A stretch of DNA of 64,000 nt from a virus, in IMG/VR virus record IMGVR_UViG_3300048080_000231; one strand, written 5' to 3'. The position numbers and the translations under genes are program-made. The notes under the pieces are model-generated. The model searched no databases, had not been told where the DNA came from, and was given only the letters and a program-made list of their open reading frames with translations. Of this stretch, positions 7,262 through 29,072 are shown one piece after another (within the stretch, counting starts at the first letter, position 1; every line of letters starts with the position of its first letter).

Positions 7262-7354
7262 AAAAAGGCTCACCTGATTATCAGATGAGCCTTAAGCGAA
7301 TCTGTGAAACTTTGCGGGTCTTACGACGGGCTTATTTATGTTAATTATAGCACA
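7262..7354 (-). promoter_or_regulatory. Extended -10 late promoter, short leader and intrinsic terminator before the tail tube gene
   Basis: TGTGCTATAAT (7354-7344), AGACCCGC (7321-7314), hairpin aggctcatctg-ataat-caggtgagcct + T5 (7293-7262). Confidence 0.6.
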
Positions 7355-7365: not shown

Positions 7366-8574
7366 TTACCTATATCCTCGTCCCATTTTACCACCTTGTC
7401 CCATCGCAAAACGCTTCACGATTCGCCATGCTTCTAGCGCACCTTGTTTGTATAAATCCCAAGGTAAACTAGCCGCTTCAGGCGTTAGCGGGTCTATATC
7501 TTTCCTGTCTTGCGCCCATCGTGCCTTAGCCGGATCGCAGAAACCGCAAGGAGGTTCGGATAGCAAAGCATTAGTCAATTTGACAATGGCTCGCTCTAAT
7601 TGGCTGTTCATTCGACAATTGCCATGTGTATCAAATGGATAACCCGCGCGATAAGCAACTGTTACCGATTCGGGTGGTATCCAATAAGTTGGCGCAGCCT
7701 CAATATTAGCTGTTCCATTCCAAGTAGCAGTCCGTGGTACAAAAAAGCCACGTTTATTATCTGTAGCATAAGCACAAGCTGTTTGCGTTTTATGTGAACA
7801 AGGAGAAGTGCAAGTGCAAACACCATCCCATCGAACTGTGACTGGTATCTGTTTGTCAATCGTCCGACAATATACATCTACTTGAGAAACAAGATTGGTT
7901 GTGTTGAAGTTTACTTTCCAAGCATCGTTATTAGGACTTCCTTGGCAATCCAATTCGGTTAAAGCCCATAATTCAGGACGCACAAATAGGCTACTTTCCG
8001 CCGTAATGTGCATAGTAGTCCCATCTATGTCAACTTTAATTGGTCGTATTTCCCATCGTGAATCGGCTGCATCTTCTGCCCCGTCAGCTACACGAAAGAA
8101 TACTGCGACTTCGCAAAGCTCATCACAAGCCGGTAAATCAGCGTAGATAGCCGTACCTATGGTAGCCGTTTCCGCCCGACCAAATGGGTCATTATCTTCA
8201 TCGGTATATTGCACCCCGGCATTAGCTTGAAGTAATGTAAGCTCCTCAGTTCCATAACATTCAACTTGCGCCCATTCCGTTCTAACCTCAGCGTTCCACC
8301 AATCACCGCGCACACCGGGCAAGCCAAAGGCGATAAGTTCATTGGTAACAAACTTTGGTGCTTCCCAAAAGCCAAGAGATTTAGCTATCATCTCTTCTGC
8401 TACTTGAATAGTCCAAGCTAAATCATCTCTAGCGTCTTGGTCCCAAATGTCAGAACAACCTTTAACCTCTGGTGCCTGAGTACCATTAAGTTGGTTGAAA
8501 TGGGTTAAAGGAATTCCAAGTAACGTAGAGAAACGATCCAAAGGGAGCAAAGTAACCGTATCAGACCTTGCCAT
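7366..8574 (-). CDS. Head-tail adaptor/connector (large)
   Basis: Adaptor-like motifs (AEEMIAKSLGF; SVTVAYRAGYP...LERAIVKLT), last gene before the tail tube. Confidence 0.65.
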   Translation of the reverse strand: MARSDTVTLLPLDRFSTLLGIPLTHFNQLNGTQAPEVKGCSDIWDQDARDDLAWTIQVAEEMIAKSLGFWEAPKFVTNELIAFGLPGVRGDWWNAEVRTEWAQVECYGTEELTLLQANAGVQYTDEDNDPFGRAETATIGTAIYADLPACDELCEVAVFFRVADGAEDAADSRWEIRPIKVDIDGTTMHITAESSLFVRPELWALTELDCQGSPNNDAWKVNFNTTNLVSQVDVYCRTIDKQIPVTVRWDGVCTCTSPCSHKTQTACAYATDNKRGFFVPRTATWNGTANIEAAPTYWIPPESVTVAYRAGYPFDTHGNCRMNSQLERAIVKLTNALLSEPPCGFCDPAKARWAQDRKDIDPLTPEAASLPWDLYKQGALEAWRIVKRFAMGQGGKMGRGYR

Positions 8575-9968
8575 TAAACCAATCCTTTAGCACTATCAAT
8601 AATAGCTTGAGCACGTTTCAGGCCAATTCCTTTATACGGCGTCAAGTTCTCTGGCTTGCTTCGTGCCAATTTTTCAATTGTCCAACTTTCAGCTTGTAAC
8701 ATGTCTTGAATTTGCCGAGATAGGCCAAGAAAAGAAAGATCATAGGTTGCTGTTGAAGAAATTGGTAAAGGCGATTCAATAGCAATAGGTTTAGGCGCAA
8801 CTATAGGAGTAATGGCAATGGGCAAAGGAATATTGATAGACGTTTCAGGTTCGACTTGTCTGGTCATCATTGCCACTTTATCAAGCCTTTCTATTCGCGC
8901 TAATTGTGGCTGAGGCGAAGGAGGCAAAATGGTTTCAGTCATACGGATAGGTTCGCTACCCATTGGTGCAGGGATACCTACTAAAAAGTCACGCCCCCGA
9001 TTCAGCTCCTTGAATTTCTGCAAATGGCGAATATGCACTTCAAATTTATGCCCTGTACCAAAAATCACATAGGGGTCTCTTTTTCCTACCACCATTATAC
9101 TAAATCGCGCTGACTTTGGCCCAACATATTCTACCCATACCTTTTCATTATCTGGCACATCGTCAAGGGTAGTAATTCGCGCTTGCTGTTGGAAATTAAC
9201 TACTCCATTACCGCTTTGTTTACTTCCACAAGATTTGCAGCCCATTGGACTTTTCCCCTCGTAAGTATCTTTGTGCATTACCATGATCTTAATTTCCATC
9301 TCACGCTGTTTACCTGCTTGACGTAAATAGAAAGCCCGACTATCCTGATGTCTTCGATAAAGCAATGTGGTATGGTTTATATGTATCCCAGGAAAATCAT
9401 GTTCCGCGCAAGATAGCCAATATTCTACATCTTCTAATCCCGCTTCAAGTTCTGGTTTCCATCCTCCCGCTGCTAAATGTGCGTTTACGGAATGTAAAGC
9501 CGTAACCGGAAAAAGGCCGCCTACATTTTGGACATTCTCCCAGGAATATTCCCCCATTACAATGGTCTTTTCGCGTACCCATCGGTCACTATCCAAAATT
9601 AATCTTTGGAGATTGCCATAGACTATTCGGCTTTTATCTTGCCGCCAAACTTCGTATAGCCTTTCTAGAGTTGCTTCCGTGCCAAATTGGTCATCAGCAT
9701 CAAGGGCTATAATAGCCTCCGATTCGGCCAGACTTACCGCTGTATTACGACATCGCGCTGGCCCCTGATTATGACTTGCCTTAAACCACCGGAAGCGACT
9801 ATCTAAATTATTATTTTGCTGAATAGGAATAGGAGAAGCGTCATCAATAATAATAGCTTCCCAGTCCTCAAAAGTTTGGCGTCTAATGCTATCCAGACAT
9901 TCAATAAGCCAGATAGCTTTATCAGGAATATTTATATAAGCTGGAATTAAAACACTAATCGCTGGCAT
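8574..9968 (-). CDS. GT2 glycosyltransferase fused to CxxC/linker and C-terminal helix-hairpin-helix domain
   Basis: ISVLIPAY...IIIDDAS...ALDADD...EDVEYW (GT2); internal MGCKSCG; C-terminal LTPYKGIGLKRAQAII (HhH). Confidence 0.85.
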   Translation of the reverse strand: MPAISVLIPAYINIPDKAIWLIECLDSIRRQTFEDWEAIIIDDASPIPIQQNNNLDSRFRWFKASHNQGPARCRNTAVSLAESEAIIALDADDQFGTEATLERLYEVWRQDKSRIVYGNLQRLILDSDRWVREKTIVMGEYSWENVQNVGGLFPVTALHSVNAHLAAGGWKPELEAGLEDVEYWLSCAEHDFPGIHINHTTLLYRRHQDSRAFYLRQAGKQREMEIKIMVMHKDTYEGKSPMGCKSCGSKQSGNGVVNFQQQARITTLDDVPDNEKVWVEYVGPKSARFSIMVVGKRDPYVIFGTGHKFEVHIRHLQKFKELNRGRDFLVGIPAPMGSEPIRMTETILPPSPQPQLARIERLDKVAMMTRQVEPETSINIPLPIAITPIVAPKPIAIESPLPISSTATYDLSFLGLSRQIQDMLQAESWTIEKLARSKPENLTPYKGIGLKRAQAIIDSAKGLV

Positions 9969-9978
9969 AGTTACCTTG

Positions 9979-10983
9979 CTATAATTTTACTTGCATTTTG
10001 TCAGACTTCAAAACTGGCGTCTTAGCTTTCAAGCGTTCCGCTTCATACCAGGCTATAGTCTCTTTTAGTCCCTCAATTAAAGAGGTTTTAGCCTCGAAAT
10101 TAAAAGCGTGTTTAGCTTGTGAAATATCTAAGCTGCGTCTTGGCTGCCCATCGGGTTTGTTTGTATCCCATCGGATAGAGCCGTGGTAATCACACATCTC
10201 AGCTAAATGATAGACAAGCCAAGCGATTCTAGTTTCTTGTCCGCTGCCGAGATTGATAGGAAATTGATTATTGTAATGTTCTGCTGCCAACAGGATAGCT
10301 TCAGCGCAATCCTTTACATAAAGAAATTCACGTGAAGCGTTTCCCGTTCCCCACACATCTACAGTAGACCAGCCCACTTCGCGCGCATCAATGAACTTGC
10401 GAATTAAAGCCGGTATAACGTGCGAGCGTTCCGGTTCAAATGTATCTCCTGGCCCGTAGAGGTTGGTAGGTAAGAGATAGATACCATTAAAGCCGTATTC
10501 ATCCCGCGCTGTCTGGAGTTGGATAAGCAGCATCTTTTTAGCCAATCCATAAGGTGCGTTGGTTTCTTCTGGGTAGCCATCCCATAATGTTTTTTCATTA
10601 AAGGGAGGCTTAGCCCACTTCGGATAAGCGCAAACCGTACCTATTTGGACAAACTTCTTTACCTTATGCCTGATACTCTCATCTATCAAGTTTAAGCCAA
10701 GCTGAAGATTATCGTATAGCAATTCGTAGGGATGATTTTGATTATAGCCAATACCACCTACATTAGCTGCCAAATTAATAAGTATATCAATTGGTTTGCC
10801 AATATAATCAAATAGTCTCTGTGCTGCTACTGCATAACGTAGATCATAATCTGCTTGTCTTGGTACAATAGGATAGCAATGTTGTTCCCATAATAAACTA
10901 ACAAGATGCTGACCCACAAAACCCGTGCCGCCAGGAATAAGTACCTTTTTATCTTTCCAGAAATTACTCATCATATCTACCAA
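9979..10983 (-). CDS. fcl: GDP-L-fucose synthase (extended SDR epimerase/reductase)
   Basis: GGTGFVG, AANVGGI, GTVCAYPK, YPEETNAPYGLAKK, PTNLYGP, SHVIPALIRKF, WGTGNASREFLYV, DGQPRRSLD. Confidence 0.92.
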   Translation of the reverse strand: MVDMMSNFWKDKKVLIPGGTGFVGQHLVSLLWEQHCYPIVPRQADYDLRYAVAAQRLFDYIGKPIDILINLAANVGGIGYNQNHPYELLYDNLQLGLNLIDESIRHKVKKFVQIGTVCAYPKWAKPPFNEKTLWDGYPEETNAPYGLAKKMLLIQLQTARDEYGFNGIYLLPTNLYGPGDTFEPERSHVIPALIRKFIDAREVGWSTVDVWGTGNASREFLYVKDCAEAILLAAEHYNNQFPINLGSGQETRIAWLVYHLAEMCDYHGSIRWDTNKPDGQPRRSLDISQAKHAFNFEAKTSLIEGLKETIAWYEAERLKAKTPVLKSDKMQVKL

Positions 10984-11266
10984 ATAAAAGTGGTTGATTT
11001 ATAGTCTGATTACCCTCATCATCTACTGCGGTAAAAACAGTTGGGATAAAGGCAGGGTATTTATCTCTCAATGATTTAGCCACATCCATTGTAATTATAC
11101 AATATTCAAAGACGCCCAATTTATCGGCATGCTTGTCTGGCCGCCATATCATTTGCCCCTGGACACCTAACAAATGCAAAATAGCGCTATCATTTGGATT
11201 ACCATAAATATAGCCAAGATATTTTGCAATTGACTTTGTAGATTTTCTTCCTTCTACCATCGCCAA
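10964..11266 (-). CDS. Hypothetical protein
   Basis: 100 aa ORF overlapping both neighbours. Confidence 0.55.
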   Translation of the reverse strand: MAMVEGRKSTKSIAKYLGYIYGNPNDSAILHLLGVQGQMIWRPDKHADKLGVFEYCIITMDVAKSLRDKYPAFIPTVFTAVDDEGNQTINQPLLFGRYDE

Positions 11267-13026
11267 TTCTCCATTGTCTCAATTACTTTTTCAGGTTGTC
11301 CCCTTAATATTCCCATTAATTCTTGTATTCGCGCCTTAAACGAATGACGTTCAAAAGCTAATCGTTGTCCATTTTCAGCGATTCGCTTTCTCTCTTCATC
11401 TTTTGCCAGATAATATCTTAGCTTCTTTTCGAGGTCTGGATAAGTACGCCAAATAATGCAGGTATCCCCATCCTTTAATCCCAAATCTTCCATCCCTCGA
11501 AACCATTGGTGAGCCAAAGCCGCGCCGCCGGCTGCTAAAGCTTGAAAAACGCGGTTAGAGACAAAGCCACTATCAGGCCATTGTGAATCGCCAATGCTTA
11601 TCTTAGCTCCTTGATAAAGTTTGCAACCCTCCTTGAAATCGTAAAGCGTGTTACCTTTTGTTATTTCTTTGGGCCAGCCCGCCCCATAAATTCCTAAGGA
11701 AGGCCCGTTTAATCTTTGTAACCATCGGCCAAATTGTTGTCTAGCTTTACTATAGCCAGTCGCCAAGAAAATAATATCATGATATGTTTCCGCTTTATGG
11801 CCCACCCCATCAGGCTCAAAACCTATTTGCCAATAGTGCGCTTTAGCTCCCATCAGCCTTAGCTTTTCTACCGCTTCTAAATTTACGCTGCCAAAAAAGT
11901 CGAAGGCTTTAGCAAGTTTGACTCCTTCTTCACTGAGCAAATTATCAGGCCAATAGTCCCCATTCCAATTGATGAATATAGCTTGAGGCGCAAGCCGCTT
12001 CCAAAAAGCTATATCGTGATAGTTAATTTCAGCTCCACTATGAAGTTGAGTAAAAATCATTGTGGGCTGAATAGAAGTTATCCAATTGGCAAGCTCAGTC
12101 AACATTCCATCCTTGCCCAATTCCCGAAATTTGCCAACATAGTCATATTCAACGAGTAAGCCCAATTCTGCTAATGCTTCCCTTAGCCCCCGCTTTTGTT
12201 CTTTAAGCACTGGAAAGCCTGGTTCAAAAATGGGAAGATATAGTATCCTTTCTCGAACAGACGTGCTATTTGGTACTAGTGGTTTATCTCTTACCACTGC
12301 GCCTACCAGACCGTGTTTGTCCTTCCATTTCTGCCCCCAGGCCCAACTGTCAGGATTATGACCACGCACCTTTGGCCGACTATCATTATTTATCTTCCGT
12401 AAATCATCAGCTATTTCATTATCGTGTATTTTGGCTAGTAGCTTTTCTTCTGTGCCAATAGGTAAAATCTGAAAGCCTAATTCTAGCACCCGACTGGATA
12501 GCTCATTGTCGCCGCCATAGGTATGGAGATAATTTCCCCACCAACCAACTGAATCGCCAAGCCATTTGGGAACAATGCAGACTTGACCATAAATATTCCT
12601 ATCTTGTCTCCCATTCCTCACTGCTGGCATTGTTTCGACATGCCAACTACGCTTGTTTCGATCTTGGAAAAAGCAACCTATTCCGCAATCAGAATGCAAT
12701 TGCATAAAGAGCCACGCCTGAAATATGCTATCATCTACAAATTCTATATCATCATTAGCTAAGATAACATAATCCCCATGTGCTGCAAAAGCCCCATCAT
12801 TAAAAGCCCTGACTGCGCCTAGCAGGGTTTGATGTTTAATCAGCTTACAATCCGATTGGCTTTCTATCCATTGTTGCGTTCCATCCTGAGAGTTGCCATC
12901 TACTAAGACAAATTCATAGGATAAGCCATAGTGAAAAGTACCAAAAGAGACGCGCGCCGAGGCTACCATGCGCTGAAGCGAGGCAAGACGATTATAAGTA
13001 CCGCTAATAATACTTATGTCTATCAA
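11254..13026 (-). CDS. Bifunctional glycosyltransferase (GT2 + GT-B Glyco_trans_1_2/CgeB-like)
   Basis: N: ISIISGTYNR, LVDGNSQDGT, ILANDDIEF, YGGDNELS; C: SNRVFQALAAG...KRIAENGQRLAFERHSFKARIQEL; TTG start. Confidence 0.88.
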   Translation of the reverse strand: MIDISIISGTYNRLASLQRMVASARVSFGTFHYGLSYEFVLVDGNSQDGTQQWIESQSDCKLIKHQTLLGAVRAFNDGAFAAHGDYVILANDDIEFVDDSIFQAWLFMQLHSDCGIGCFFQDRNKRSWHVETMPAVRNGRQDRNIYGQVCIVPKWLGDSVGWWGNYLHTYGGDNELSSRVLELGFQILPIGTEEKLLAKIHDNEIADDLRKINNDSRPKVRGHNPDSWAWGQKWKDKHGLVGAVVRDKPLVPNSTSVRERILYLPIFEPGFPVLKEQKRGLREALAELGLLVEYDYVGKFRELGKDGMLTELANWITSIQPTMIFTQLHSGAEINYHDIAFWKRLAPQAIFINWNGDYWPDNLLSEEGVKLAKAFDFFGSVNLEAVEKLRLMGAKAHYWQIGFEPDGVGHKAETYHDIIFLATGYSKARQQFGRWLQRLNGPSLGIYGAGWPKEITKGNTLYDFKEGCKLYQGAKISIGDSQWPDSGFVSNRVFQALAAGGAALAHQWFRGMEDLGLKDGDTCIIWRTYPDLEKKLRYYLAKDEERKRIAENGQRLAFERHSFKARIQELMGILRGQPEKVIETMENWRW

Positions 13027-13206
13027 TTTTTATAGACCTACTAAAAAAGGTATGCCATAAATTGGCATCTCAGGTATTTTCATAAACTCAAGGTAATTTT
13101 ATACACTTGTCAAAAACTTCAATTAAATCAATACCTTTTTGGCATTTCAGGCGTTTTACGTTTTTGGTTTTATTTTTCTGTTCATTTATACACTACTTGG
13201 TGTTAA

Positions 13207-13263
13207 TTGATATACGATATAGTGTTATAAAGTAGCGTTTTATAACACTATATCGTATATCAA
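13207..13263. repeat. Perfect 25-bp inverted repeat with 7-nt loop
   Basis: TTGATATACGATATAGTGTTATAAA (13207-13231) / TTTATAACACTATATCGTATATCAA (13239-13263). Confidence 0.95.
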
Positions 13264-13295
13264 AAGGCTATTCTGAGGTTAAATCTTTCCATTTC

Positions 13296-13871
13296 TTAGC
13301 TTTTCCACCATATCCCGAAACCACCCCCCTGCTCAGCCCCATCATGCAATTTATCAATTCTTAGCTTATTCCCCTCTAGCCAATCCCAAAAGCCGCGCAT
13401 CTCTTGCCTGAATAAATCATCAAAGCAAACTACCGCTTTATCAGATAGATAAGGTTTCCATGCCAAAAGCTCATTAACTGTTTGCGTAAATGTGTGCGTT
13501 GTGTCAATGAAAAGAATATCTATTACGCCATATTCATTGTATATCTCCGGCGCACTCTTGATACTATCTCCAAGCCAAAAGCGAAAATTGGAGTAATTTT
13601 CTGTGATATGCTTGATATTCTCAGGATGGTCGTCTGCCATATCAACACCAATAACTTGCCCCTGATTATATCCCATCGCAAGGTGCAAACTACCCCCACC
13701 CCCGCATACGCCAAGTTCTACACTCAAGTTTGGCTGAAGATGCGCCGCCAAAACTTTAAGAAAACGATAATAGAGCGAGGGAGGGAAACGCGGGTCAGGA
13801 TAGACAGGTTCTCTCTCAGCTTGTTTTGCTAATTCTATTAAAATATAACTATCTATCAATTGATACCCCAA
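13296..13871 (-). CDS. Class I SAM methyltransferase (Methyltransf_24-like) 1
   Basis: VELGVCGGGGS, IGVDM, IDILFIDTTHTF, AVVCFDD. Confidence 0.85.
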   Translation of the reverse strand: MGYQLIDSYILIELAKQAEREPVYPDPRFPPSLYYRFLKVLAAHLQPNLSVELGVCGGGGSLHLAMGYNQGQVIGVDMADDHPENIKHITENYSNFRFWLGDSIKSAPEIYNEYGVIDILFIDTTHTFTQTVNELLAWKPYLSDKAVVCFDDLFRQEMRGFWDWLEGNKLRIDKLHDGAEQGGGFGIWWKS

Positions 13872-14389
13872 ATTTGTAACCGACTGCCAGCCAAAAGTAA
13901 GTCGGTAGGGTCATTATCTGTCTGTATGGTCACACGGTCTACAGCTGCCGTATTCTCCCATTGACCCACTTGGATACTTGTTAGTGAAATGGTTGTTGAC
14001 ATCCTACCATTAGAAATAGCATCATACATTTTATTTTGGGCAACCGTATAATACCATAATCGAATTTCACACATGCCAAAATAATTTGCCGGAGAAGAAC
14101 CCGCCGGAACGCCCGCCCCCAATATAGCGTCATCCTGTCCAACTGCGTGAACGGCATTATTGACCTGATGATAAGCCCGACGATAATTTGCTGCTGTTGT
14201 ATCATTATTCAGAATGATATTCAAATTATCAGTTGTGGCTACTACAGTGCCACGACTCAACAAATATATAAATAAATGATCATGAGTAGCGGGTATATTT
14301 TGAACATCAAACTTTCCATCTACAGCTAATGTTTCATCATGTAAAAGCGTCCAGGCTCCACCAGCTGAATTTGGATTATTTATTCCCAT
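13856..14389 (-). CDS. Putative virion decoration/fibre domain protein
   Basis: Beta-rich; C-terminal WENTAAVDRVTIQ...AGSRLQIWGI resembles a widespread phage virion domain. Confidence 0.5.
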   Translation of the reverse strand: MGINNPNSAGGAWTLLHDETLAVDGKFDVQNIPATHDHLFIYLLSRGTVVATTDNLNIILNNDTTAANYRRAYHQVNNAVHAVGQDDAILGAGVPAGSSPANYFGMCEIRLWYYTVAQNKMYDAISNGRMSTTISLTSIQVGQWENTAAVDRVTIQTDNDPTDLLLAGSRLQIWGIN

Positions 14390-14392
14390 TAG

Positions 14393-14806
14393 TTAAGCCT
14401 CCTTAGCTGTATAAGCCTGACCCAAAGTTGCGCCAATGACAGAAACGCTATCAGTAACAATGGCCGAACCTTCCATTACAAAACTCCCACCATCAGCAGC
14501 AAGTAAAATAGAAGGCTGATTCAGATTGGCATTAGCATTAAAATTTATCCAAAGACTTCCACTTGATACATTTTGCACTAATAAGTATCTCCGACTTAGA
14601 TTAGCTGCCATAATTTGTTGTGCTACTGAAGCTGCGCCTAGTGTGCCACTACGATCGGTAAAACTAATTTGCTGAGAAACAAACTCATTAGCTCCAGATG
14701 GTACTGTGACCTGAAGCGAATATGAGCCATCAGTATTACGCACTGCTGCTATAGGTCTGATGTCTTGCTCAGCTGTTAAAAAACCATAAACCGTTACTTC
14801 AGACAT
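14393..14806 (-). CDS. Putative virion decoration protein
   Basis: Ser/Thr/Ala-rich beta protein, AANLSRRYLLVQNVSSGSLWINF motif seen in phage spike/decoration proteins. Confidence 0.5.
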   Translation of the reverse strand: MSEVTVYGFLTAEQDIRPIAAVRNTDGSYSLQVTVPSGANEFVSQQISFTDRSGTLGAASVAQQIMAANLSRRYLLVQNVSSGSLWINFNANANLNQPSILLAADGGSFVMEGSAIVTDSVSVIGATLGQAYTAKEA

Positions 14807-14833
14807 TTCTTATTCTCCTTGAACTATTCTGAA

Positions 14834-16002: not shown

Positions 16003-16621
16003 AGCGCATAAATCCCATTGGATACCCTGGATTAAGTGTCGCTGGTTCAAGCCATTTCTCCCCCGGTAAGTCATTCCAAAAGTCCAACATCCCGGAAATA
16101 ACCGCACCATAACCCCCGATTATATCATCACAGATAACTAGAGCAGGTGAGGCTAAAAGTGGTTTGTAATCATTCCAATCTCTCATAGCATGTTCGTAAT
16201 CGTGCCAACTATCTATGAAGAGAAGGTCTATTGGTCGGTTTTGTGCTGCAACCACTTGGTACATGTCCCATGTCCAACCTTGCAGATAGATTAGATTAGG
16301 ATACTGTGCCGTCGCTTCAAGCATCTTTATTTTATTCAAGTCATCACCCGGATCGCTGAGGTGGTCAATCGTGATAACCTGCGCTTTAGAATAGCCTGAA
16401 GCAAAATGCGCCGCCGCTGTTCCCTGCCAACCGCCAAGTTCAACCACTAACTCAGGCTCAAGCCACTTAGCAAGATGATAAAATAAGCGGTAATAGCGGA
16501 GATAACTGCCAAATTTCTCTTTGTGGAGATCGTAGCGTTTATCTATGAAGTCATCCCTAGTTGGTGCTTCTGAAAACGTCTTTACAAGTAAAATTATGTC
16601 ATTTAAGGTAAAGGTATTCAT
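15986..16621 (-). CDS. Class I SAM methyltransferase (Methyltransf_24-like) 4
   Basis: VELGGWQGTAA, ITIDH, IDLLFIDSWHDY, LVICDDI. Confidence 0.85.
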   Translation of the reverse strand: MNTFTLNDIILLVKTFSEAPTRDDFIDKRYDLHKEKFGSYLRYYRLFYHLAKWLEPELVVELGGWQGTAAAHFASGYSKAQVITIDHLSDPGDDLNKIKMLEATAQYPNLIYLQGWTWDMYQVVAAQNRPIDLLFIDSWHDYEHAMRDWNDYKPLLASPALVICDDIIGGYGAVISGMLDFWNDLPGEKWLEPATLNPGYPMGFMRYEANH

Positions 16622-16998
16622 GGTGCAATTCCCTTATCCCAATCATAGCCTTCAACATTTAATTCTTCTCGTAACTTTGTCAAATCCTTGCCCAGAGCTA
16701 TTAAGATTTCTTCCAAATACCATTGCTTATGCCACCACTCCGTATCCGTAAGCAAGCCAGAAATAGCTAAAGCAATTGCCTTATCCTGACCATTCGTCGA
16801 AGTGGGTTGCGGCGTCGGGGTGGGTGGGGTCGCGGGCTTGATATAGCCGGCCAGTTCTAGCCATCTGCGGATGATATAGCCAGCCATATCTCGGTCGGTG
16901 CGACGTTTCGTATTTGCTAACTGCATCAGCGCGGAACGTTCCGCGCGTTCCAACGTTACTGTAATTCGTGGTTTGCTCATAACTGAACTCCCTGACAA
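16618..16998 (-). CDS. RHH-like N-terminal domain + HKQWYLEEI domain protein
   Basis: RITVTLERAERSALMQLA..DMAGYIIR, Pro/Thr linker, C-terminal WWHKQWYLEEIL...YDWDKGIAP. Confidence 0.5.
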   Translation of the reverse strand: MSGSSVMSKPRITVTLERAERSALMQLANTKRRTDRDMAGYIIRRWLELAGYIKPATPPTPTPQPTSTNGQDKAIALAISGLLTDTEWWHKQWYLEEILIALGKDLTKLREELNVEGYDWDKGIAP

Positions 16999-17027
16999 AT
17001 GGCATTTCTAAAATTTCATTTATTGTC

Positions 17028-17354
17028 CTAATCACAAATGCAATGTACACGGTGTTCTATTAAACGGATTGCAGCTAAAACACCTTTGATATAATCCGAT
17101 TTATCTGCATCCTCTTCACGTTTATATTCAATCTTATTCTCAATAATATCTAGCTTAATTTGGTCACGGATATTATTCCAATTGCCAACTTTTACAAATT
17201 CATCATAAGGCAACCAGAATATGGGTTTATCCGCTTTTTGCAATTTTTCGCAATAAGCTATCAAATCCTCAACTATAGTACCCAAGTGATAAGGATTGAT
17301 ACCATAGCTTTTTAGAATTATATCTTTAATCTTGGCTACAATTTCATCCTTCAT
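17028..17354 (-). CDS. Hypothetical protein
   Basis: 108 aa ORF in operon. Confidence 0.55.
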   Translation of the reverse strand: MKDEIVAKIKDIILKSYGINPYHLGTIVEDLIAYCEKLQKADKPIFWLPYDEFVKVGNWNNIRDQIKLDIIENKIEYKREEDADKSDYIKGVLAAIRLIEHRVHCICD

Positions 17355-17680
17355 TTGGTTATCCTTTGCAGAAATGATTGTGTGCCAGCCAAGCCAAAGA
17401 TAAGCAAAAATAAATCAGCCCAATAATTGCCCCATAGCAGAAGCAAAGCACATCCCACTGCTATATATATGCCTATGCAAAATGGACAATTCAACCCCTC
17501 ATCTAAGTTACACCAAAAGCCTAAAGGTTGCCCCACGTCTTGCTGTACTTTAGCCTTCCTATCAGTCCAAGCTCGCAGTCGTTTGAAGATAAAGCCCGGC
17601 CCATCATCTTCTGAAAATAGCTGAGAGAGGCGATAAATAGCCAAGGCAGTTATGATAAGTCGGATAAGTTCACTACTCAT
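17351..17680 (-). CDS. DUF1360-like membrane protein
   Basis: LAIYRLSQLFSEDDGP..F..LR...LNCPFCIGIY plus hydrophobic helices. Confidence 0.7.
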   Translation of the reverse strand: MSSELIRLIITALAIYRLSQLFSEDDGPGFIFKRLRAWTDRKAKVQQDVGQPLGFWCNLDEGLNCPFCIGIYIAVGCALLLLWGNYWADLFLLIFGLAGTQSFLQRITK

Positions 17681-18534
17681 AAACCTACCAATTCCCTCGT
17701 ATCATCAGCCTTAATAGCCTCCAGCAATTCCCCTCTTAACTCGTATCGTGTTCTGCCCACGTGATACCTCATCACTTTTGGCAAATTAAATGGCGATTCC
17801 AACTTAGTCCAATCAGGATTTCGCCTTGCATTTTCTGCCCAAGTTGCCGCCTCTACGTTCTCGATTGTAGGGCTTTCATGCCAAAAGGGGGCGTGTAGTG
17901 CGCGTTTCTCTATGATATTATCTCGGAAACCCCCAACCGCTGAAACATCCATAATCATTTCGTGTACGTAAGGCTTTATCCCCTCATCTCCCAAACCGCC
18001 CCATTGCTGAAACCATTCAGCACCAAGATTAGAACATACTTTAGCGTCAAAAGTTCTATTACTATTCATCCCATCGCCTACAAAGTAGAAGTTTCCTTTT
18101 TGTCCCACTCTATGAACAAGATGAGGAAACCATTTAACACGCTGGAAGTTATCACGATATTGTATACGCCAGAAGCTAAGGTCAAATTGCCCCTCATTGA
18201 ACTTTTGGTTCATCAACCTTAATAAATCCTCGTGCCAAATCTCATCAGCCTGATAATATAACACATTGTCATAATGGCAAAAATCTATCAGATCATTGGC
18301 AAGCAACGCAAAGGCACTTGCATCTATCACCGGCCATTGCGTCATGATAAGTTTGAATTTGGAATTAGCTTTAACAATATCTTGCAGCACCTCTAGCGTC
18401 CCGTCCGTGCTCCCCAAGTCCATAACCACGAATTCGGTGGCAAAGGGTAAGAGTGTTGCGATGCTCTCGAAAACACAAAAAGCACCTTTGAGTGTGTCTT
18501 TTATAAAGCAGCAAACGGATAGATTATAACTCAT
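17677..18534 (-). CDS. GT2-like glycosyltransferase
   Basis: EFVVMDLGSTDGTLEVL, VLYYQADEIW. Confidence 0.8.
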   Translation of the reverse strand: MSYNLSVCCFIKDTLKGAFCVFESIATLLPFATEFVVMDLGSTDGTLEVLQDIVKANSKFKLIMTQWPVIDASAFALLANDLIDFCHYDNVLYYQADEIWHEDLLRLMNQKFNEGQFDLSFWRIQYRDNFQRVKWFPHLVHRVGQKGNFYFVGDGMNSNRTFDAKVCSNLGAEWFQQWGGLGDEGIKPYVHEMIMDVSAVGGFRDNIIEKRALHAPFWHESPTIENVEAATWAENARRNPDWTKLESPFNLPKVMRYHVGRTRYELRGELLEAIKADDTRELVGL

Positions 18535-19393
18535 TCTCCCTCATCTTCCTTAATCCATCTTCAACCTTTGACAGTATCAAGCCCGCGCTATCCAACTTCC
18601 TTAAATCGTAGCTTGTGTTTTTTGGTCGCTTAGCCATACTGGTAAATTGGCTAGAGGAAACAGGCGTTAAGAGTTTTTTATCAAATCCCCACACTTTAGC
18701 AATCTTAAGACCAAATTCGTATAGAGAAATGCTCTCAGAAGAAGCAACATTGTATATCTGCCTACTCTCTTTACTTAGCTGCCAAATGGCCCAGGCACAG
18801 TCCCAGGCATAGGTAGGTTGCCAAATCACATCATTAACCAATTTAACAGATTGATTGCCACCCAAAGTATGAATAAGATAAGTCGCCCAATTCCCGCGCG
18901 CGCCTGGGCTATTCCAACCATAGAGCATAAAAGGGCGAATGATAAGGTAATCTAAACTACTCTGTTTTACTATTTCCTCTGCTTGCTGTTTGATTAGACC
19001 ATAGCTATTAATTGGCTTAAGTGGGCTTTTTTCAGAGTAAGGTGGATTAGTTCCCTCGTAGACAGCATTAGTGCTTATATAAATAAACTTACTATTATAA
19101 GCCTCTGCCGCCCTGATAACGTTTTCAGTTCCTTTAGCATTAACCGCGTACACTTCGCTATAGTTTGTCCCTGCATAATCTACACTGCCAATAGCCGCAC
19201 AATGGATGATTAACTCGGGCTTAATCTTATCCATTACATAGCGTATCTGGCTTTTATTACCTACATCCATTTGGTGCATATTGGCAAGGTAATTTGTATA
19301 CCAGGTCGCTTCAATCTCATAACCGTGAGGTTTGGTTAGAATGAGATATTTTCCCAAAAGAGAATTGCCGCCCGTGATAAGAACTTTTACCAT
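18524..19393 (-). CDS. rmlD: dTDP-4-dehydrorhamnose reductase
   Basis: ITGGNSLLG, IIHCAAIGSVD, YISTNAVYEG, PINSYGLIKQQAE, IRPFMLYG, WQPTYAWD, AKRPKNTSYD. Confidence 0.85.
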   Translation of the reverse strand: MVKVLITGGNSLLGKYLILTKPHGYEIEATWYTNYLANMHQMDVGNKSQIRYVMDKIKPELIIHCAAIGSVDYAGTNYSEVYAVNAKGTENVIRAAEAYNSKFIYISTNAVYEGTNPPYSEKSPLKPINSYGLIKQQAEEIVKQSSLDYLIIRPFMLYGWNSPGARGNWATYLIHTLGGNQSVKLVNDVIWQPTYAWDCAWAIWQLSKESRQIYNVASSESISLYEFGLKIAKVWGFDKKLLTPVSSSQFTSMAKRPKNTSYDLRKLDSAGLILSKVEDGLRKMRENEL

Positions 19394-20115
19394 TTACTAT
19401 AGTCCGTCTCAAAAAGGCCATCAGTAGTTATTTTATTGTGATGCCAATACCTATATTCTGGCGGACAAACGTACCGCCATTGATTAGTTACTCTGCAATG
19501 TAATTCCATTCGCCCCTCAAGCATAGCCCAATATTCAGGTAGAGGCCCGCCTGAAATATTCACATTGCCATCCCATCTTGGCTGATTGAAGTTAGCTCGT
19601 CTAAATTCCTCTACCCGCGCCATGAACATCTGCTGAGACATGCGCCGGGTTAATCGTTCCGGTTCGCCATCATTGGGGGAAACAATGAAGATATTTTTAT
19701 CTGCTTCTAGCTTCTCTATACCAAATTGCACCCAACTTTGGAGTTGACTAACCATCCAACAATCAGCATCAGCAAATACGATATAATCAGTAGTGGCTTC
19801 GCTAATTGCCTTTAGATGATTAACAACGTGATACTTCCACCTATGTATTTTGTCAGTCGGACTAATATATTGTGGCTTATCTATATCAATCTCAAATGCC
19901 CGAAGTGTATCATCTATATCAGTAATCTCAACTTGAGTAATTGGTAAATAAGGAACAAGAGGCTTATAAAAATCGGGATTGCATAATTGATACATCACAA
20001 GAATTTCATCAAAAGCATAGCTGTTGCTTTCAACTTGCTTTCTCAATTGACCGGGTGCGTGTAACTTAAGCGCATCGCCGGCATGGCAGAAAGTAGCAAA
20101 GGTTACACTAGTCAT
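19387..20115 (-). CDS. GT-A fold glycosyltransferase-like protein
   Basis: DYIVFADADCW DxD motif; context among GT genes. Confidence 0.6.
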   Translation of the reverse strand: MTSVTFATFCHAGDALKLHAPGQLRKQVESNSYAFDEILVMYQLCNPDFYKPLVPYLPITQVEITDIDDTLRAFEIDIDKPQYISPTDKIHRWKYHVVNHLKAISEATTDYIVFADADCWMVSQLQSWVQFGIEKLEADKNIFIVSPNDGEPERLTRRMSQQMFMARVEEFRRANFNQPRWDGNVNISGGPLPEYWAMLEGRMELHCRVTNQWRYVCPPEYRYWHHNKITTDGLFETDYSKW

Positions 20116-20840
20116 ATTGTAGGTTCATATCTCGTCTGGCCCACCAATAATTTTAATACTATTGGAATGTTAAATGGCGTTGTTCTCCACGTCCAAAGCG
20201 GGTCAGCCAATTGCACTTGTTCTTCCTTTTCACTCAATTCGTAAGGTAAGGTAAAGTGGATCGGTACGGCTATATGTCTCGGTTGTCCGAATAAGATAGC
20301 TTGGTTTTGTTTCCGGGCATAGTAGTTATCCAAAAAACAGCCCGAAATATCCCATAAAAAGCCCGCTTCAGGCGGCAATATCTTTACTCCTTCCGGGCAA
20401 TTAGTAGGATGTAAGTGATAGCTTCCCTGTCCGGTCGGGAATATTCTATGAACAGGAATTGGATACCATTTACATCGTTGAAAGTTTTGCTCTAGCTGCA
20501 AGCGATAGACAGCAAGATTATGATTGCCTTGGAATATTTCTTTACGCACATTATAAAGCAACTTAGGATCGTAAACCTCATCAGCTTCAAAGAAGATGGT
20601 TACATCCTCCTGACACTGATGGCGTAATTCCCAAGCGACTAAGTGCGCCTCTTTTCCCCACCACGAAGATACTACCTTGATCCAGCTTATCTTTTCTAGT
20701 CTCTCTCTTGTCCCATCCGTGGAGGCCATATCTACGACTACAATCTCATCAACATAAGGAGTAACCGCTTCTATCGCCTCAAAAAGGGGATAGCCGCCCT
20801 CAACTGCGTTATGGATAAAGGTAAAGCCGCTAATTTTCAT
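20112..20840 (-). CDS. GT2-like glycosyltransferase
   Basis: MKISGFTFIHN..YP..EAI, IVVVDMASTDGT, FFEADEVY; paralog of 17677-18534. Confidence 0.8.
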   Translation of the reverse strand: MKISGFTFIHNAVEGGYPLFEAIEAVTPYVDEIVVVDMASTDGTRERLEKISWIKVVSSWWGKEAHLVAWELRHQCQEDVTIFFEADEVYDPKLLYNVRKEIFQGNHNLAVYRLQLEQNFQRCKWYPIPVHRIFPTGQGSYHLHPTNCPEGVKILPPEAGFLWDISGCFLDNYYARKQNQAILFGQPRHIAVPIHFTLPYELSEKEEQVQLADPLWTWRTTPFNIPIVLKLLVGQTRYEPTI

Positions 20841-21029
20841 TCTGCATTTCCTGCCAAAAAAGAAGCACTATTTTTCGCCCTTTTTCCTTTTCTTGCTCTA
20901 ACCATGTAGGAGGATAGATATTTAAATTTCATTTTCCGTAAACGTTTTATGTTCTGTAGATGTATAGGCCGTAGGGTCTATATCCCTATATGCAAAAGAT
21001 ACCTGATAAGTTATGAACCAAGTTTTCAT
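20830..21029 (-). pseudogene. Small gene apparently broken by a 1-nt deletion
   Basis: MKTWFITYQVSFAY...TENEI* continues as NIYPPTWLEQEKEKGRKIVLLFWQEMQNEN* if one T is restored in ATTT. Confidence 0.35.
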
Positions 21030-21871
21030 CGCCACTTTTCCGTACTCTCCCATACCGCTTGCCTGACCATCTTCCCAAATTGAAACTCCTCACACATTCT
21101 CTTTCTGGCCCTTTCTCCCATTTCGCGCCATTGCGCATAGTCACTTCTTAACACATCATTGGCGCGTTTCACAATAGCATCATAGCCGGCAAATATCATA
21201 TATTCGCCAGAAAAAGGATAGGCTTCAATTAAAGTTTCACTGATGATAGGCAAACCATAAGCGGCAAAAAGAGCGAAACGCAGAGGTTCTTGAAACGGGT
21301 GATTATCTTGGTGAATATTGAGCGCAAATTTGGATTGTTTCAATACCCTATCACGCTCAGGCGGCCAGCAATTAGGCCCAAGTCTATCATAGCCAAGGCG
21401 AGAATAAATCTCAGCACGCCGGGGAACTATAGCCGACATGTGAACGAAGTCATGCATTTTATAGTCGCTTGGTTCACCTAAACCGTAGTCAGAGCCAAGC
21501 ACTACGAAGCGTAAGTGTGTTTCATTTGCAAGTTTGCTATCCGAAACCCAAATTTCATCTACTTGACGATTGTAGATATAATTGCGGTTACTTTCTCCGT
21601 AATTGCCCACGCTTCCTTTGCTACCCGAAGGACGTTCAATATTCCATAAAATAAGATGGGCATTTCTTTCTTTATGTGCCTGATTATCTATGTGCGGATT
21701 CCATTCGCCATTATGAGGAGAGACAATGTAAACCTTATGCTGAGATACGTCCACTTCGCTTATCGGAATGATAGGAAAGCCTGATAGCTCAGCTAAACGA
21801 AAGAAGTCTGTGTACGAATCGTAGTGATGCCCTGTTCTAACAAAGATAATTTCAGCCATTGGATGCTTCAA
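21026..21871 (-). CDS. GT-B (Glyco_trans_1_2-like) glycosyltransferase
   Basis: RVLKQSKFALNIHQ..FQEPLRFALFAAYGLPIISE...REMGERARK. Confidence 0.75.
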   Translation of the reverse strand: MKHPMAEIIFVRTGHHYDSYTDFFRLAELSGFPIIPISEVDVSQHKVYIVSPHNGEWNPHIDNQAHKERNAHLILWNIERPSGSKGSVGNYGESNRNYIYNRQVDEIWVSDSKLANETHLRFVVLGSDYGLGEPSDYKMHDFVHMSAIVPRRAEIYSRLGYDRLGPNCWPPERDRVLKQSKFALNIHQDNHPFQEPLRFALFAAYGLPIISETLIEAYPFSGEYMIFAGYDAIVKRANDVLRSDYAQWREMGERARKRMCEEFQFGKMVRQAVWESTEKWR

Positions 21872-22067
21872 CCTTTATCTTGGTTTCACCATCACTTGCG
21901 CGATAAAAGGTAAATTTATAACAAGTTTCTCCATTATCAATTTTAAAGCCTCTAAATTGTTCACGTAATTCTAATTGGTCAGGCTTTACATAGTTTGTCC
22001 AAAATTGTCTAAAGGCTTCTTTTGCCTCGTATGGAGTTTCAAAGGCAGTGGTTATGGTTATTTCCAT
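21852..22067 (-). CDS. Hypothetical protein
   Basis: 71 aa ORF in operon. Confidence 0.5.
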   Translation of the reverse strand: MEITITTAFETPYEAKEAFRQFWTNYVKPDQLELREQFRGFKIDNGETCYKFTFYRASDGETKIKVEASNG

Positions 22068-22143
22068 TATTCTTCTTTCAAGGGGTATTCAAAAAGCCCT
22101 TTTAAGTTAGCCCTTTTTGATAATCTGCAAAATAAGATTGTGT

Positions 22144-22323
22144 CTATTGAGGAGAATGTACCAACTTAATATATATCCAAGCCGTTGAGGAAAATGTCAT
22201 CAATTCATTACCTGCATCATCAAGAATATCTAAAGACCCATCTTCGTCTATTGACCAAGTAGACCCTTCGACATTCATTCTTCTTTCTTCAATACCGACT
22301 AAGTAAGAAACTTCAAATGTCAT
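22144..22323 (-). CDS. Small hypothetical protein (not in ORF track)
   Basis: MTFEVSYLVGIEERRMNVEGSTWSIDEDGSLDILDDAGNELMTFSSTAWIYIKLVHSPQ*, abuts the upstream stop. Confidence 0.5.
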   Translation of the reverse strand: MTFEVSYLVGIEERRMNVEGSTWSIDEDGSLDILDDAGNELMTFSSTAWIYIKLVHSPQ

Positions 22324-23073
22324 TTATTCAATCTTCCTTAAATTGTAAAATGGATGACTTTTCATAATCTCAGGTAATCGGCTTTTATCAAATGGCATAG
22401 GGCTCCAGAAGCCTTTATCATTTGTCGGGTGACAATCAGCCGGGGGAGGCCAGACAGACCATTTATCAACAAACCAATCAGGACGCAATTCAGCTTTATG
22501 GCCGTGTATCAGCCACTTATAAGCCATAACAGAATCGCGTACAGCGTAGCCAAAATGGTATATCTCTCCAAATTCTTTGGGGATATAGCCAATCTCTTTA
22601 CCATCTTGGCGCAAGTCCATGAAGCGTACCGGCCAGCCTTCGTCACGGCAAACCCAATCGAAGCTGTGCCAAAAGTGAGTGAAGTTGATAAGCCAATTGC
22701 GCTTATTGCCATTGGCTACTAATTCCAAGGCCGCCTTAAGTGTAGCCTCTTGCCAAATCTCATCGCAATCTACTACTAGCACTACATCAGCCCCGGCCTT
22801 ACGGCATATCTCTACCGCCAAGTCCCGATGCTGGCCCTCATGCCATACATTTTCAATATCATACCATTTAATCTTGTGTTCCGGGTCATAAGTAGCAACA
22901 GCCGCCATGATCGCTTCGCGCGATTCAATTGGCGGCTGTTCTGTTTTGTAACCGTGAGTTGGATGAGGGGTATATAAGACGTGGATTTGTTCTACTTGGT
23001 TGTAAACTGATTGTAAGGCATAACTAACATAATCCACGCCATAATGTAAAATTTGATAAGCATGCGTTTTCAA
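22324..23073 (-). CDS. GT2-like glycosyltransferase
   Basis: YALQSVYNQVEQIHVLY, HEGQHRDLA, VLVVDCDEIW, IYHFGYA; first gene after the capsid gene. Confidence 0.75.
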   Translation of the reverse strand: MKTHAYQILHYGVDYVSYALQSVYNQVEQIHVLYTPHPTHGYKTEQPPIESREAIMAAVATYDPEHKIKWYDIENVWHEGQHRDLAVEICRKAGADVVLVVDCDEIWQEATLKAALELVANGNKRNWLINFTHFWHSFDWVCRDEGWPVRFMDLRQDGKEIGYIPKEFGEIYHFGYAVRDSVMAYKWLIHGHKAELRPDWFVDKWSVWPPPADCHPTNDKGFWSPMPFDKSRLPEIMKSHPFYNLRKIE

Positions 23074-28954: not shown

Positions 28955-29072
28955 AAAAAAGTCCGGTAGTCTCTCGCAGTGAGGTAAACTACCGGACTGG
29001 ATATACGAAATGACGAGCTTAGCTTAAAGCGGGTCTAATTACATTTATCTTACCATAATTATATCAAAAGGC
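28955..29072 (-). promoter_or_regulatory. Extended -10 late promoter, leader and terminator before the portal gene
   Basis: TTGATATAAT (29067-29058), AGACCCGC (29036-29029), stem agtccggtagt/actaccggact + T run (28998-28955) directly before ATG 28954. Confidence 0.6.

Follow-up and report, generated by a model that had tools for sequence, protein, structure and literature searches.

What does a phage build with a block of sugar genes that lies inside its head operon, and on which molecule? We analysed a window of 64,000 nucleotides from an uncultured phage of sediment (IMG/VR virus record IMGVR_UViG_3300048080_000231), in which an island of about 14.5-14.6 kb, about a fifth of the phage genome, follows the major capsid gene. 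The island contains seven glycosyltransferase (GT) genes, four Methyltransf_24 genes, RmlD-like and Fcl-like reductases and a DUF1360 protein, and an RmlC-like gene lies upstream. The original prediction was that this island makes a glycan coat for the virion. The flanks and the putative control elements are as follows.

23160..24623, minus strand: major capsid protein, 487 aa, 15 Cys (Atlas features SU10_MCP 0.97)
7366..8574, minus strand: 402-aa Cys-rich protein, last of the head operon, 66-70% identity in relatives
7265..7293, minus strand: strong intrinsic terminator-like hairpin, 13-bp stem followed by a T-run, at the operon end
13027..13295, minus strand: AT-rich gap of 269 bp; contains a long hairpin, and the portal-leader 13-mer occurs here again

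Every gene in 1-31735 is on the minus strand. The genes that start with the capsid gene and end with the 402-aa gene form 21 junctions, of which 13 are overlaps of 1-20 nt and one is an overlap of 125 nt (as called); at the remaining seven the genes are 3 to 269 nt apart. Thus, the island is co-oriented with the capsid operon and mostly coupled to it, as predicted, with overlaps at 14 of 21 junctions. The head operon is bounded on one side by a promoter-like leader (at about 29072) and on the other by the strong terminator (7293-7265). The overlapping co-oriented genes, the leader and the terminator point to one predicted transcription unit for the island and the head genes. The AT-rich gap may be an internal promoter or attenuator. 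The island had been placed between capsid and head-tail genes. The capsid side of this placement holds, both by Atlas features and by structure (viral 'major capsid protein family' clusters are matched with TM 0.73); capsid identity is 62-67% in relatives and 24% in G005. The other side is only weakly adaptor-like; the 402-aa protein, whose AF2 model has a pLDDT of 31, gave a weak Atlas lead to head-completion/Phage_connect_1 families and is possibly a head-tail adaptor.

The following GT genes were identified in the island.

22324..23073, minus strand: GT-A fold GT, first enzyme after the capsid gene (AF2, hhalign and motif)
21026..21871, minus strand: GT-B-type GT, PF13524 (Glyco_trans_1_2; Pfam 7.8e-7)
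20112..20840, minus strand: GT2, core gene (PF00535 1.9e-7; ADE motif)
19387..20115, minus strand: GT2, core gene (PF00535 1.6e-5; DAD motif)
17677..18534, minus strand: GT2, core gene (PF00535 7.8e-6; ADE motif)
11254..13026, minus strand: two-domain GT, N-terminal GT2 and C-terminal PF13524 GT-B-type (Pfam 1e-15, 2e-19)
8574..9968, minus strand: multi-domain GT2 (PF00535 8e-21; HHH_5 3.7e-4, below cut-off)

Seven GT genes with eight GT domains had been predicted; six of the genes were recognized by Pfam and the seventh (22324-23073) by its fold. This seventh gene has no match in Pfam or PHROG, is found in seven of seven genomes and carries an invariant DxD(E) motif. Its AF2 model (pLDDT 93.5) has a GT-A fold; SpsA is the best PDB fold match in Foldseek (2e-7), Swiss-Prot fold matches include SunS, SpsA and CgeD, and viral GT-A proteins were also matched, among them one Gordonia phage GT that it resembles at the fold level only. 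By hhalign it matches the island GT2 profile with 89% probability (E 2.4e-6). The GT at 21026..21871 is found in all relatives with 47-65% identity, and its PF13524 domain is one that we take to be of the CgeB/YkvP type. In 8574..9968, a Cys motif comes after the GT2 domain, then a beta-rich domain that is conserved, a linker rich in Pro and, optionally, a helix-hairpin-helix (HhH) tail; in the alignment, the middle domain is present in all genomes and the tail in some. The fusion at 11254..13026 is the signature gene of the island.

Four class I methyltransferases had also been predicted, and four PF13578 genes, each with a glycine-rich SAM loop, were found.

15986..16621, minus strand: Methyltransf_24 SAM methyltransferase, rhamnosyl O-methyltransferase/CmcI-like (PF13578 1.5e-11; PF04989 3.8e-5)
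15400..16110, minus strand: Methyltransf_24 SAM methyltransferase (PF13578 2e-12; PF04989 4.6e-6)
14834..15403, minus strand: Methyltransf_24 SAM methyltransferase (PF13578 1.6e-10)
13296..13871, minus strand: Methyltransf_24 SAM methyltransferase, the paralogue with the highest conservation (PF13578 4.8e-14)

All four are over the cut-off for PF13578 and three of the four for PF04989, and 15400..16110 has a weak match to the rhamnosyl O-methyltransferase family NF045824. The enzyme at 13296..13871 is 53-54% identical in G001, G002 and G003 and has matches in G004 and G006 too (E 6e-58 and 1.5e-67). These family matches suggest that the four enzymes are sugar O-methyltransferases. Transmembrane (TM) segments are not predicted in any island GT or methyltransferase; thus, the island enzymes are predicted to be soluble.

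Which sugars would these enzymes handle? Three genes bear on this.

29211..29657, minus strand: RmlC-like dTDP-4-dehydrorhamnose 3,5-epimerase, in the terminase-portal interval (PF00908 4e-18)
18524..19393, minus strand: RmlD-like dTDP-4-dehydrorhamnose reductase (PF04321 2.9e-51)
9979..10983, minus strand: Fcl-like (GDP-L-fucose synthase-like) SDR epimerase/reductase (PF01370 1e-47)

GDP-fucose synthase, RmlD and RmlC had been named as such. The family matches stand and are full-length and the best ones, yet equivalog-level identity is not reached at the NCBIfam cut-offs: the Fcl-like protein scores 256 bits against 500 (NF047922, best match by far), the RmlD-like protein 177 against 224 (TIGR01214) and the RmlC-like protein 52 against 156 (TIGR01221). 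We infer the sugar identities from these below-cut-off matches, and the sugars may therefore differ. The RmlC-like gene has an identical position in L003 and L004, the RmlD-like gene is missing in G001, and an Fcl-like gene is confined to the window, G001 and G002. It was also claimed that only terminal sugar-nucleotide steps are encoded. Consistent with this, neither a PF00483 nucleotidyltransferase nor a second PF16363 enzyme is found in the four complete relatives (0/4 each), RmlA and RmlB are found neither in the window nor in these four, and Gmd was not found. The dTDP-L-rhamnose pathway (RmlABCD) is thus incomplete, with only the RmlC-like and RmlD-like steps, both below cut-off.

The remaining genes of the island are small.

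21852..22067, minus strand: 71-aa ORF, kept only in the near-identical fragment L001
17351..17680, minus strand: DUF1360 small membrane protein with one TM-like segment (PF07098 6e-7; phrog_781)
17028..17354, minus strand: strain-specific 108-aa ORF, with neither a family match nor a homologue in relatives
16618..16998, minus strand: strain-specific 126-aa ORF, N-terminus of the Arc-like ribbon-helix-helix type (phrog_3431 4e-6), no counterpart in relatives
14393..14806, minus strand: strain-specific 137-aa beta-rich ORF (phrog_22789, function unassigned, 1.5e-11), not in relatives
13856..14389, minus strand: strain-specific 177-aa beta-rich ORF, no family match, not in relatives
10964..11266, minus strand: 100-aa ORF with a homologue in G003 and a weak one in L023

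The two beta-rich proteins had been described as virion-like; they are strain-specific extras that no relative keeps. The predicted DUF1360-like membrane protein is present (PF07098) and is found in the island of six of seven genomes, being missing from G005.

Is the island a conserved part of this phage lineage? The post-capsid gene order is common to seven genomes, four of which are complete with terminal repeats. It is kept even in G005, where the GTs are 36-52% identical although the capsid protein is 24% identical. Island enzymes are conserved at 50-65%, on par with structural proteins. The island is thus, as far as gene order and identity tell, a conserved core of the clade, which is widespread and uncultivated, with genomes of 71-103 kb with terminal repeats. 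The island measures 10.7 kb at its shortest and 28.4 kb at its longest, as sugar-tailoring genes are gained and lost; Fcl, RmlD, methyltransferase copy number, a C-methyltransferase, nucleotidyltransferases, NUDIX and an acetyltransferase-like gene vary between relatives. The GT fusion has 509 metagenomic homologues (the best 120 of 509 are full-length and 52-91% identical) and is common on metagenomic contigs of 60-90 kb. It has one match, on a tiny MAG contig, in 185,579 bacterial and archaeal species genomes and no match in GenBank phages. The GT-A enzyme, the fusion and one methyltransferase showed no detectable similarity by tblastn to 50,697 GenBank phages, with no actinophage match. These distributions suggest that the signature enzymes are phage-specific and not host-derived. 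No PF00589 tyrosine integrase was found in five relatives (0/5), no lysogeny genes were found, and the clade is apparently virulent.

A different target for such enzymes would be the host envelope. The GTs and methyltransferases could extend an undecaprenyl-linked primer (ABC-type O-antigen, S-layer glycan or teichoic-acid-like) or glycosylate pilins or flagellins, and the resulting late surface change could, for example, block adsorption of progeny or competitors. We regard both the envelope target and the surface change as unlikely. ABC-transporter-dependent O-antigen synthesis typically has cytoplasmic peripheral GTs and terminal O-methylation, and the GT and O-methyltransferase kit of the island fits this pattern. 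Soluble GTs work on lipid-linked acceptors in these pathways, so solubility is compatible with an envelope target. The nearest NCBIfam names for the island GTs are EPS, teichuronic-acid and colanic-acid GTs, the DUF1360 membrane protein is conserved in the island, and cyanophage clusters of GTs and epimerases are usually so interpreted (PMC12801897). However, the window contains no priming phosphoglycosyltransferase, flippase, polymerase, ligase or ABC exporter; the predicted lack of flippase and polymerase is borne out, since all window proteins have four or fewer TM-like segments. Furthermore, the complete relatives lack an integrase, every relative has the island embedded among its head genes and not placed like a moron, and its signature enzymes appear phage-specific. 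An O-antigen/capsule serotype-conversion locus, which would call for a flippase (Wzx or GtrA), a polymerase (Wzy) or a membrane GT (GtrB/GtrC) and for a temperate phage, was considered separately and rejected, with no protein of more than four TM-like segments in the window, soluble enzymes and no PF00589 in the five relatives.

Phage DNA is another conceivable acceptor. The GTs would act on modified phage bases, and the HhH tail of one GT2 would tether it to DNA. Phage GTs build diverse glycans on 5hmC or 5hmU DNA (bioRxiv 10.1101/2023.12.21.572611), which is a precedent, and the C-terminus of 8574-9968 has a weak HhH match. This tail is, however, missing from G002, G003 and G006. Five relatives have no thymidylate-synthase-like hydroxymethylase (PF00303, 0/5), and Pfam scans of the early genes in the window showed N6/N4 DNA methylase and DUF5131 only, with no hydroxymethylase seen. 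For the other kind of base-modifying enzyme, TET/5mYOX, a PF12851 search gave no match, and its control was uninformative. The genes lie in the head operon and not in the replication module, and deoxyhexose donors with four sugar-type O-methyltransferases make up no known DNA-glycan kit. DNA hypermodification is thus very improbable. Somewhat less so, but still improbable, is another product, such as a free or secreted methylated oligosaccharide, a small-molecule glycoside or a non-structural phage protein target. Methyltransf_24/CmcI-type enzymes and deoxysugar GTs are known in natural-product pathways (PF04989 description), but the island has no scaffold genes (PKS, NRPS or terpene), and a fixed head-operon position over deep divergence is hard to square with a metabolite.

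The reading that we favour, and consider reasonably probable, is that the island glycosylates the phage's own virion as a soluble, lipid-carrier-independent cytoplasmic factory for a methylated deoxyhexose coat. The restriction to terminal steps, the lack of flippase and polymerase, the predicted solubility and the head-operon position support this part of the original prediction, and so does the synteny kept over deep divergence, whereas the expected acceptor features were not found. Unlike the mycobacteriophage acceptors, the capsid protein lacks a Ser/Thr-rich tail at its C-terminus, which is conserved and Cys- and Gly-rich. Its N-x-S/T sites are few and none is conserved, and a Ser/Thr-rich or mucin-like tract is absent from all real ORFs in the window. 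In the proposed mechanism, dTDP- and GDP-4-keto-6-deoxyhexoses would come from host enzymes, and the RmlC/RmlD-like and Fcl-like phage enzymes would complete L-rhamnose-type and L-fucose-type donors. Eight soluble GT domains would assemble the oligosaccharide, with the GT-A enzyme adjoining the capsid gene (22324-23073) as the candidate for the priming step, and the four Methyltransf_24 enzymes would O-methylate the sugars. The acceptor would most likely be at least one virion protein, with the capsid as first candidate in view of the position of the island among the head genes. Coat composition would differ among related phages as tailoring genes are gained and lost. We infer both the acceptor and the role of the coat (shielding, stability or adhesion) from genomic context.

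A bolder version, which we put forward tentatively and with some doubt, is a hypervariable, O-antigen-like 'serotype locus' for the phage's own capsid, in which a conserved core of six to seven soluble GTs acts on the assembled shell with swappable tailoring, and which would be the largest and most elaborate phage particle-glycosylation system known, unrelated to that of mycobacteriophages. The tailoring modules would make the coat differ from strain to strain and would include fucose/rhamnose finishing, O-methylation (one to four times), C-methylation and perhaps the addition of phosphonate. This version also describes the clade as globally distributed and virulent, in sediment and aquatic habitats, with a cytoplasmic build as in spore-crust glycosylation. 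If virion glycosylation is true, heavy strain-variable glycan coats would be central to a phage lineage that is abundant in the environment and devotes 15-28% of its genome to them. This bears on particle stability and adsorption in sediments, on evasion of recognition by host or grazer and on the reading of 'auxiliary metabolic' sugar genes in viromes. It would also offer soluble lipid-independent GTs and sugar O-methyltransferases with which protein shells could be glyco-engineered.

To our knowledge, virion glycosylation by phage enzymes is proven only in a few actinobacteriophages and on a small scale, and giant algal viruses also glycosylate their particles. According to the accounts of Freeman et al. 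(2023) in PMC11600133 and PMC12619734, mycobacteriophage enzymes modify their own capsid and tail tube in Che8, Myrna and cluster O phages of the Corndog type, the last with an O-methyltransferase and three GTs. As far as these accounts go, both systems use phage-encoded soluble GTs and O-methyltransferase without export machinery, and there are two to four GTs there against seven GT genes, four methyltransferases and three nucleotide-sugar enzymes here. In contrast to the mycobacteriophage genes, the island is fixed within the head operon and reaches 28 kb in relatives, three of its enzymes have no sequence homology to Che8/Corndog enzymes by tblastn, the capsid protein lacks the Ser/Thr-rich acceptor tail, and glycosylation of the virion is a prediction. 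In PBCV-1, A064R and A061L build and di-O-methylate the terminal L-rhamnose of the capsid glycan, and GMD/GMER rely on host GDP-mannose (PMC9614988). By analogy, the island may share a cytoplasmic virus-encoded pathway, multi-domain GT fusions (A064R is a two-GT-plus-methyltransferase protein), host sugar-nucleotide precursors, a GMER/Fcl-type enzyme and methylation by separate SAM enzymes, which in PBCV-1 act stepwise on terminal L-rhamnose. However, PBCV-1 is a giant virus that infects a eukaryote; its capsid is of the double-jelly-roll type, its glycans are N-linked and its genes are dispersed and do not form one operon. This phage, in turn, has no GMD. In the spore crust of Bacillus subtilis, CgeB acts on CgeA, and SpsA-L also take part (PMC13577073, PMC11708026). 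The protein shell there, which self-assembles in the mother cell, is coated by soluble GTs, and no lipid carrier is evident. This is a possible parallel, although that system is cellular, not viral, and the likeness of its SpsA to the GT-A enzyme is at the fold/family level only. The 'LPS/cell-wall' clusters of the cyanomyoviruses P-SSM2, S-SCSM1 and S-SCSM2R (PMC12801897) likewise belong to environmental lytic phages with many GTs, NDP-sugar epimerases and RmlC. Their place is outside the structural module, and the usual reading is host-surface modification, whereas the block described here has a fixed position, with the capsid gene on one side and the next head gene on the other. In summary, the island is most likely a far larger, unrelated version of the particle glycosylation of mycobacteriophages and giant algal viruses.

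Our sequence covers 64,000 of 65,272 bp of metagenomic sequence from a sediment metagenome. The source is a tailed bacteriophage. Genes for helicases, DUF5131, an N6/N4 DNA methylase and a sigma-70-type factor lie in the plus-strand half; the sigma factor points to a bacterial host and is a possible driver of the late operon. This factor is complete with regions 2, 3 and 4, and the intervals 53518-54273 and 44279-44875 hold the sigma factor and a pentapeptide-repeat protein. The minus strand carries every gene from 1 to 31735, and the glycosyltransferase (GT) and methyltransferase island lies in this block between the capsid gene and a 402-aa gene.

Genes flanking the island, in transcription order
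first in the minus-strand block, (-): small ORF
29670-31193, (-): large terminase (PF20441, phrog_9)
29211-29657, (-): RmlC-like
27437-28954, (-): weakly portal-like gene (phrog_146)
between the portal-like gene and the capsid gene, (-): two unknown genes
23160-24623, (-): capsid protein, 487 aa
7366-8574, (-): 402-aa gene, after the island
5739-7205, (-): BNR-repeat protein, after the 402-aa gene
downstream of the BNR-repeat gene, (-): small genes, then an 824-aa protein, whose position is occupied in relatives by a TMP_3 tape-measure protein

The 487-aa protein was identified as the capsid protein by its Atlas features (SU10_MCP, 0.97) and by its structural match to viral capsid clusters (TM 0.73). 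The 402-aa protein gave a weak head-completion/adaptor lead in Atlas, and its AF2 model, built from a 4-sequence alignment, failed with a pLDDT of 31; the adaptor identity remains a weak lead. Cysteines are numerous in the capsid (15), 402-aa (13) and BNR (14) proteins, many of them invariant in the first two, and number 0-2 in the portal, 730-aa and tape-measure-like proteins.

No close relative was found among 50,697 GenBank phages, and the terminase was at most 22-33% identical to known terminases. Megablast and tblastn searches of GenBank phages with the capsid region, capsid protein, GT fusion (11254-13026) and GT-A gene (22324-23073) gave no match, and tblastn with one methyltransferase gave a single match, 24% identical, in an unannotated megaphage. 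The capsid protein had no match in a scan of bacterial and archaeal genome contigs, and PDB sequence searches with the capsid protein, GT-A, GT-B and one methyltransferase returned nothing useful. Homologues of GT-A (proteins P0127 and P0191) lie on short or medium contigs with MAG labels of Planctomycetota and Candidatus Hodarchaeales; the labels probably reflect mis-binning of phage contigs.

The enzymes originally predicted for the island were recovered. Six of the seven GT genes, one of them the GT2+PF13524 fusion, were identified by Pfam and the seventh, GT-A, by fold; Pfam also confirmed the four Methyltransf_24 enzymes, RmlD, the Fcl-like SDR and DUF1360. GT-A, the first gene past the capsid gene, matched neither Pfam nor PHROG. 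In an alignment from five genomes, D102-x-D104-E105 is invariant, and its profile matched the island GT2 genes (probability 89%, E 2.4e-6). Foldseek with its AF2 model (35 sequences, pLDDT 93.5) gave GT-A enzymes as neighbours (SpsA, 2e-7), with the peptide glycosyltransferases SunS and ThuS among the matches, as well as viral "Fringe-like/GT17" proteins at TM up to 0.69. By its predicted structure, this protein is a GT-A-fold glycosyltransferase. Every GT-A domain of the island retains a DxD-type motif, and all four methyltransferases retain the glycine-rich SAM loop. The best NCBIfam matches of the three nucleotide-sugar enzymes were Fcl, RmlD and RmlC, full-length and below the equivalog cut-offs; because of these scores, the sugar identities stay putative.

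IMG/VR was searched with the capsid protein and GT-A, giving eleven distinct loci, and full islands were read in six further genomes. Four of these six have direct terminal repeats and are complete, at 71.4, 74.1, 77.8 and 103.2 kb. Gene order past the capsid gene is identical in all relatives read.

Conserved order of the island, starting past the capsid gene
1-4: GT-A; PF13524 GT; GT2; GT2
5-7: RmlD (optional); GT2; DUF1360 (optional)
8-9: one to four Methyltransf_24 genes; GT2+PF13524 fusion
10-12: Fcl (optional); GT2 with Cys motif and beta domain; 402-aa gene or positional analogue

In six genomes, the capsid gene and the 402-aa gene are 10.7, 11.0, 14.6 (window), 18.3, 24.5 and 28.4 kb apart; the stretch read in the seventh, G006, stops about 18 kb beyond the capsid gene, short of the 402-aa gene. 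The extra island DNA holds homing endonucleases, small ORFs and additional genes for tailoring (a TylC3-type sugar C-methyltransferase, NTP_transf_3 nucleotidyltransferases, NUDIX, BKACE and a PglD_N-like protein). The endonucleases, of GIY-YIG/NUMOD3 and HNH types, were located in the relatives' stretches L008 (1567-2553), L022 (923-1932) and L023 (2400-3278, 7479-7847). PhnD-like proteins with ABC permeases occur in one genome, G001 (IMGVR_UViG_3300009499_000114), where L008:9713-18607 encodes two PhnD-like phosphonate-binding proteins and two ABC permeases, together with NTP_transf_3 nucleotidyltransferases and the TylC3-type enzyme. These genes could add phosphonate and C-methyl decoration to the glycan, or could be an unrelated phosphorus-uptake insertion.

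In the relative G005 (IMGVR_UViG_3300031553_000001; L027/L020), the capsid and portal proteins are 24% and 35% identical to those of the window, whereas the GTs are 36-52% identical in unchanged order; DUF1360 and Fcl are missing. Either the enzymes are more strongly constrained or the cassette was transferred between lineages. Metagenomes yielded 509 homologues of the GT fusion; the best 120 are full-length, 52-91% identical and located on contigs reaching about 60-92 kb, and two NCBI assemblies carry the fusion in the same context. The fusion hardly occurs in 185,579 species genomes of bacteria and archaea, where a single 1.8-kb MAG contig carries it. Because the order is kept in relatives and the fusion is nearly absent from cellular genomes, the island is an old, phage-specific and selected portion of the head module, not a recent host-derived moron.

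Some parts of the island fall outside this core. Two beta-rich ORFs (14393-14806 and 13856-14389), which the original prediction had taken as virion-like, are missing from all relatives, as are a 108-aa and a 126-aa ORF; all four are strain-specific passengers. In the 126-aa ORF (16618-16998), the N-terminus is of the Arc-like ribbon-helix-helix type (phrog_3431, 4e-6).

Upstream of the portal gene, there are a promoter-like TGATATAAT element, a AGACCCGC box and a hairpin; after the 402-aa gene, there are a similar leader and a 13-bp-stem terminator (7293-7265). Most genes between this portal leader and the terminator overlap, and the only sizeable internal gap, 13027-13295, contains a long hairpin together with a 13-mer identical to one in the portal leader. 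Since the head genes and the island lie between this leader and the terminator and mostly overlap, the island appears to be co-transcribed with the head genes. The leaders and the shared 13-mer look like a late-operon antitermination design, judging from sequence. Both leaders (28975-29075 and 7265-7350) contain an extended -10-like TG-n-TATAAT, the AGACCCGC box and a terminator hairpin. Consensus scans for promoters and terminators gave, overall, no excess over shuffled expectation, and a single feature was retained from them, the strong hairpin at 7293-7265.

What does the island glycosylate? We consider it reasonably likely that the acceptor is the phage's own particle. An RmlA-type nucleotidyltransferase and a second PF16363 enzyme are both absent from the four complete genomes. 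This confirms that only terminal sugar steps are encoded, and therefore that the phage depends on host 4-keto-6-deoxy precursors. Host enzymes would provide dTDP- and GDP-4-keto-6-deoxyhexose, which the phage enzymes would complete into L-rhamnose-type and L-fucose-type donors. In the cytoplasm, soluble GTs would then build an oligosaccharide straight onto a protein acceptor, to be O-methylated by the Methyltransf_24 paralogues. The simplest acceptor would be the capsid or another head protein. However, the capsid protein has no Ser/Thr-rich tail of the kind in mycobacteriophage acceptors and no conserved sequon, and a search across the window found no mucin-like tract. An acceptor other than particle or envelope is improbable in our estimate.

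Alternatively, the enzymes could remodel the host envelope through a hijacked lipid-linked pathway, which we regard as unlikely, though more probable than an acceptor other than particle or envelope. As predicted, flippase and polymerase are lacking: zero window proteins have more than four TM-like segments, and therefore none is of Wzx, Wzy or GtrB type. The island enzymes have no TM segments, and a tyrosine integrase, as a sign of lysogeny, is absent in five relatives. DNA modification is very improbable: a ThyA-like hydroxymethylase was searched for in five relatives and not found, and the HhH tail of the last GT2 (8574-9968) is absent in three of the seven genomes. The middle beta domain of this enzyme is present in all, so its conserved partner is the beta domain, not HhH; the Cys motif and beta-rich domain occur together in 7/7 genomes.

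The proposed glycosylation of the phage particle has parallels elsewhere. PBCV-1 is a second precedent for virion glycosylation: its A064R combines two rhamnosyltransferase domains with a 2-O-methyltransferase, A061L is a 3-O-methyltransferase, and its GMD/GMER rely on host GDP-mannose (PMC9614988). Among cellular systems, a comparable case is the spore crust, which soluble CgeB and Sps enzymes glycosylate (PMC13577073). tblastn of GT-A, the GT fusion and one methyltransferase against the 50,697 GenBank phages revealed no homology to the mycobacteriophage glycosylation family. Compared with these systems, the island is a new and much larger form of an already known type.
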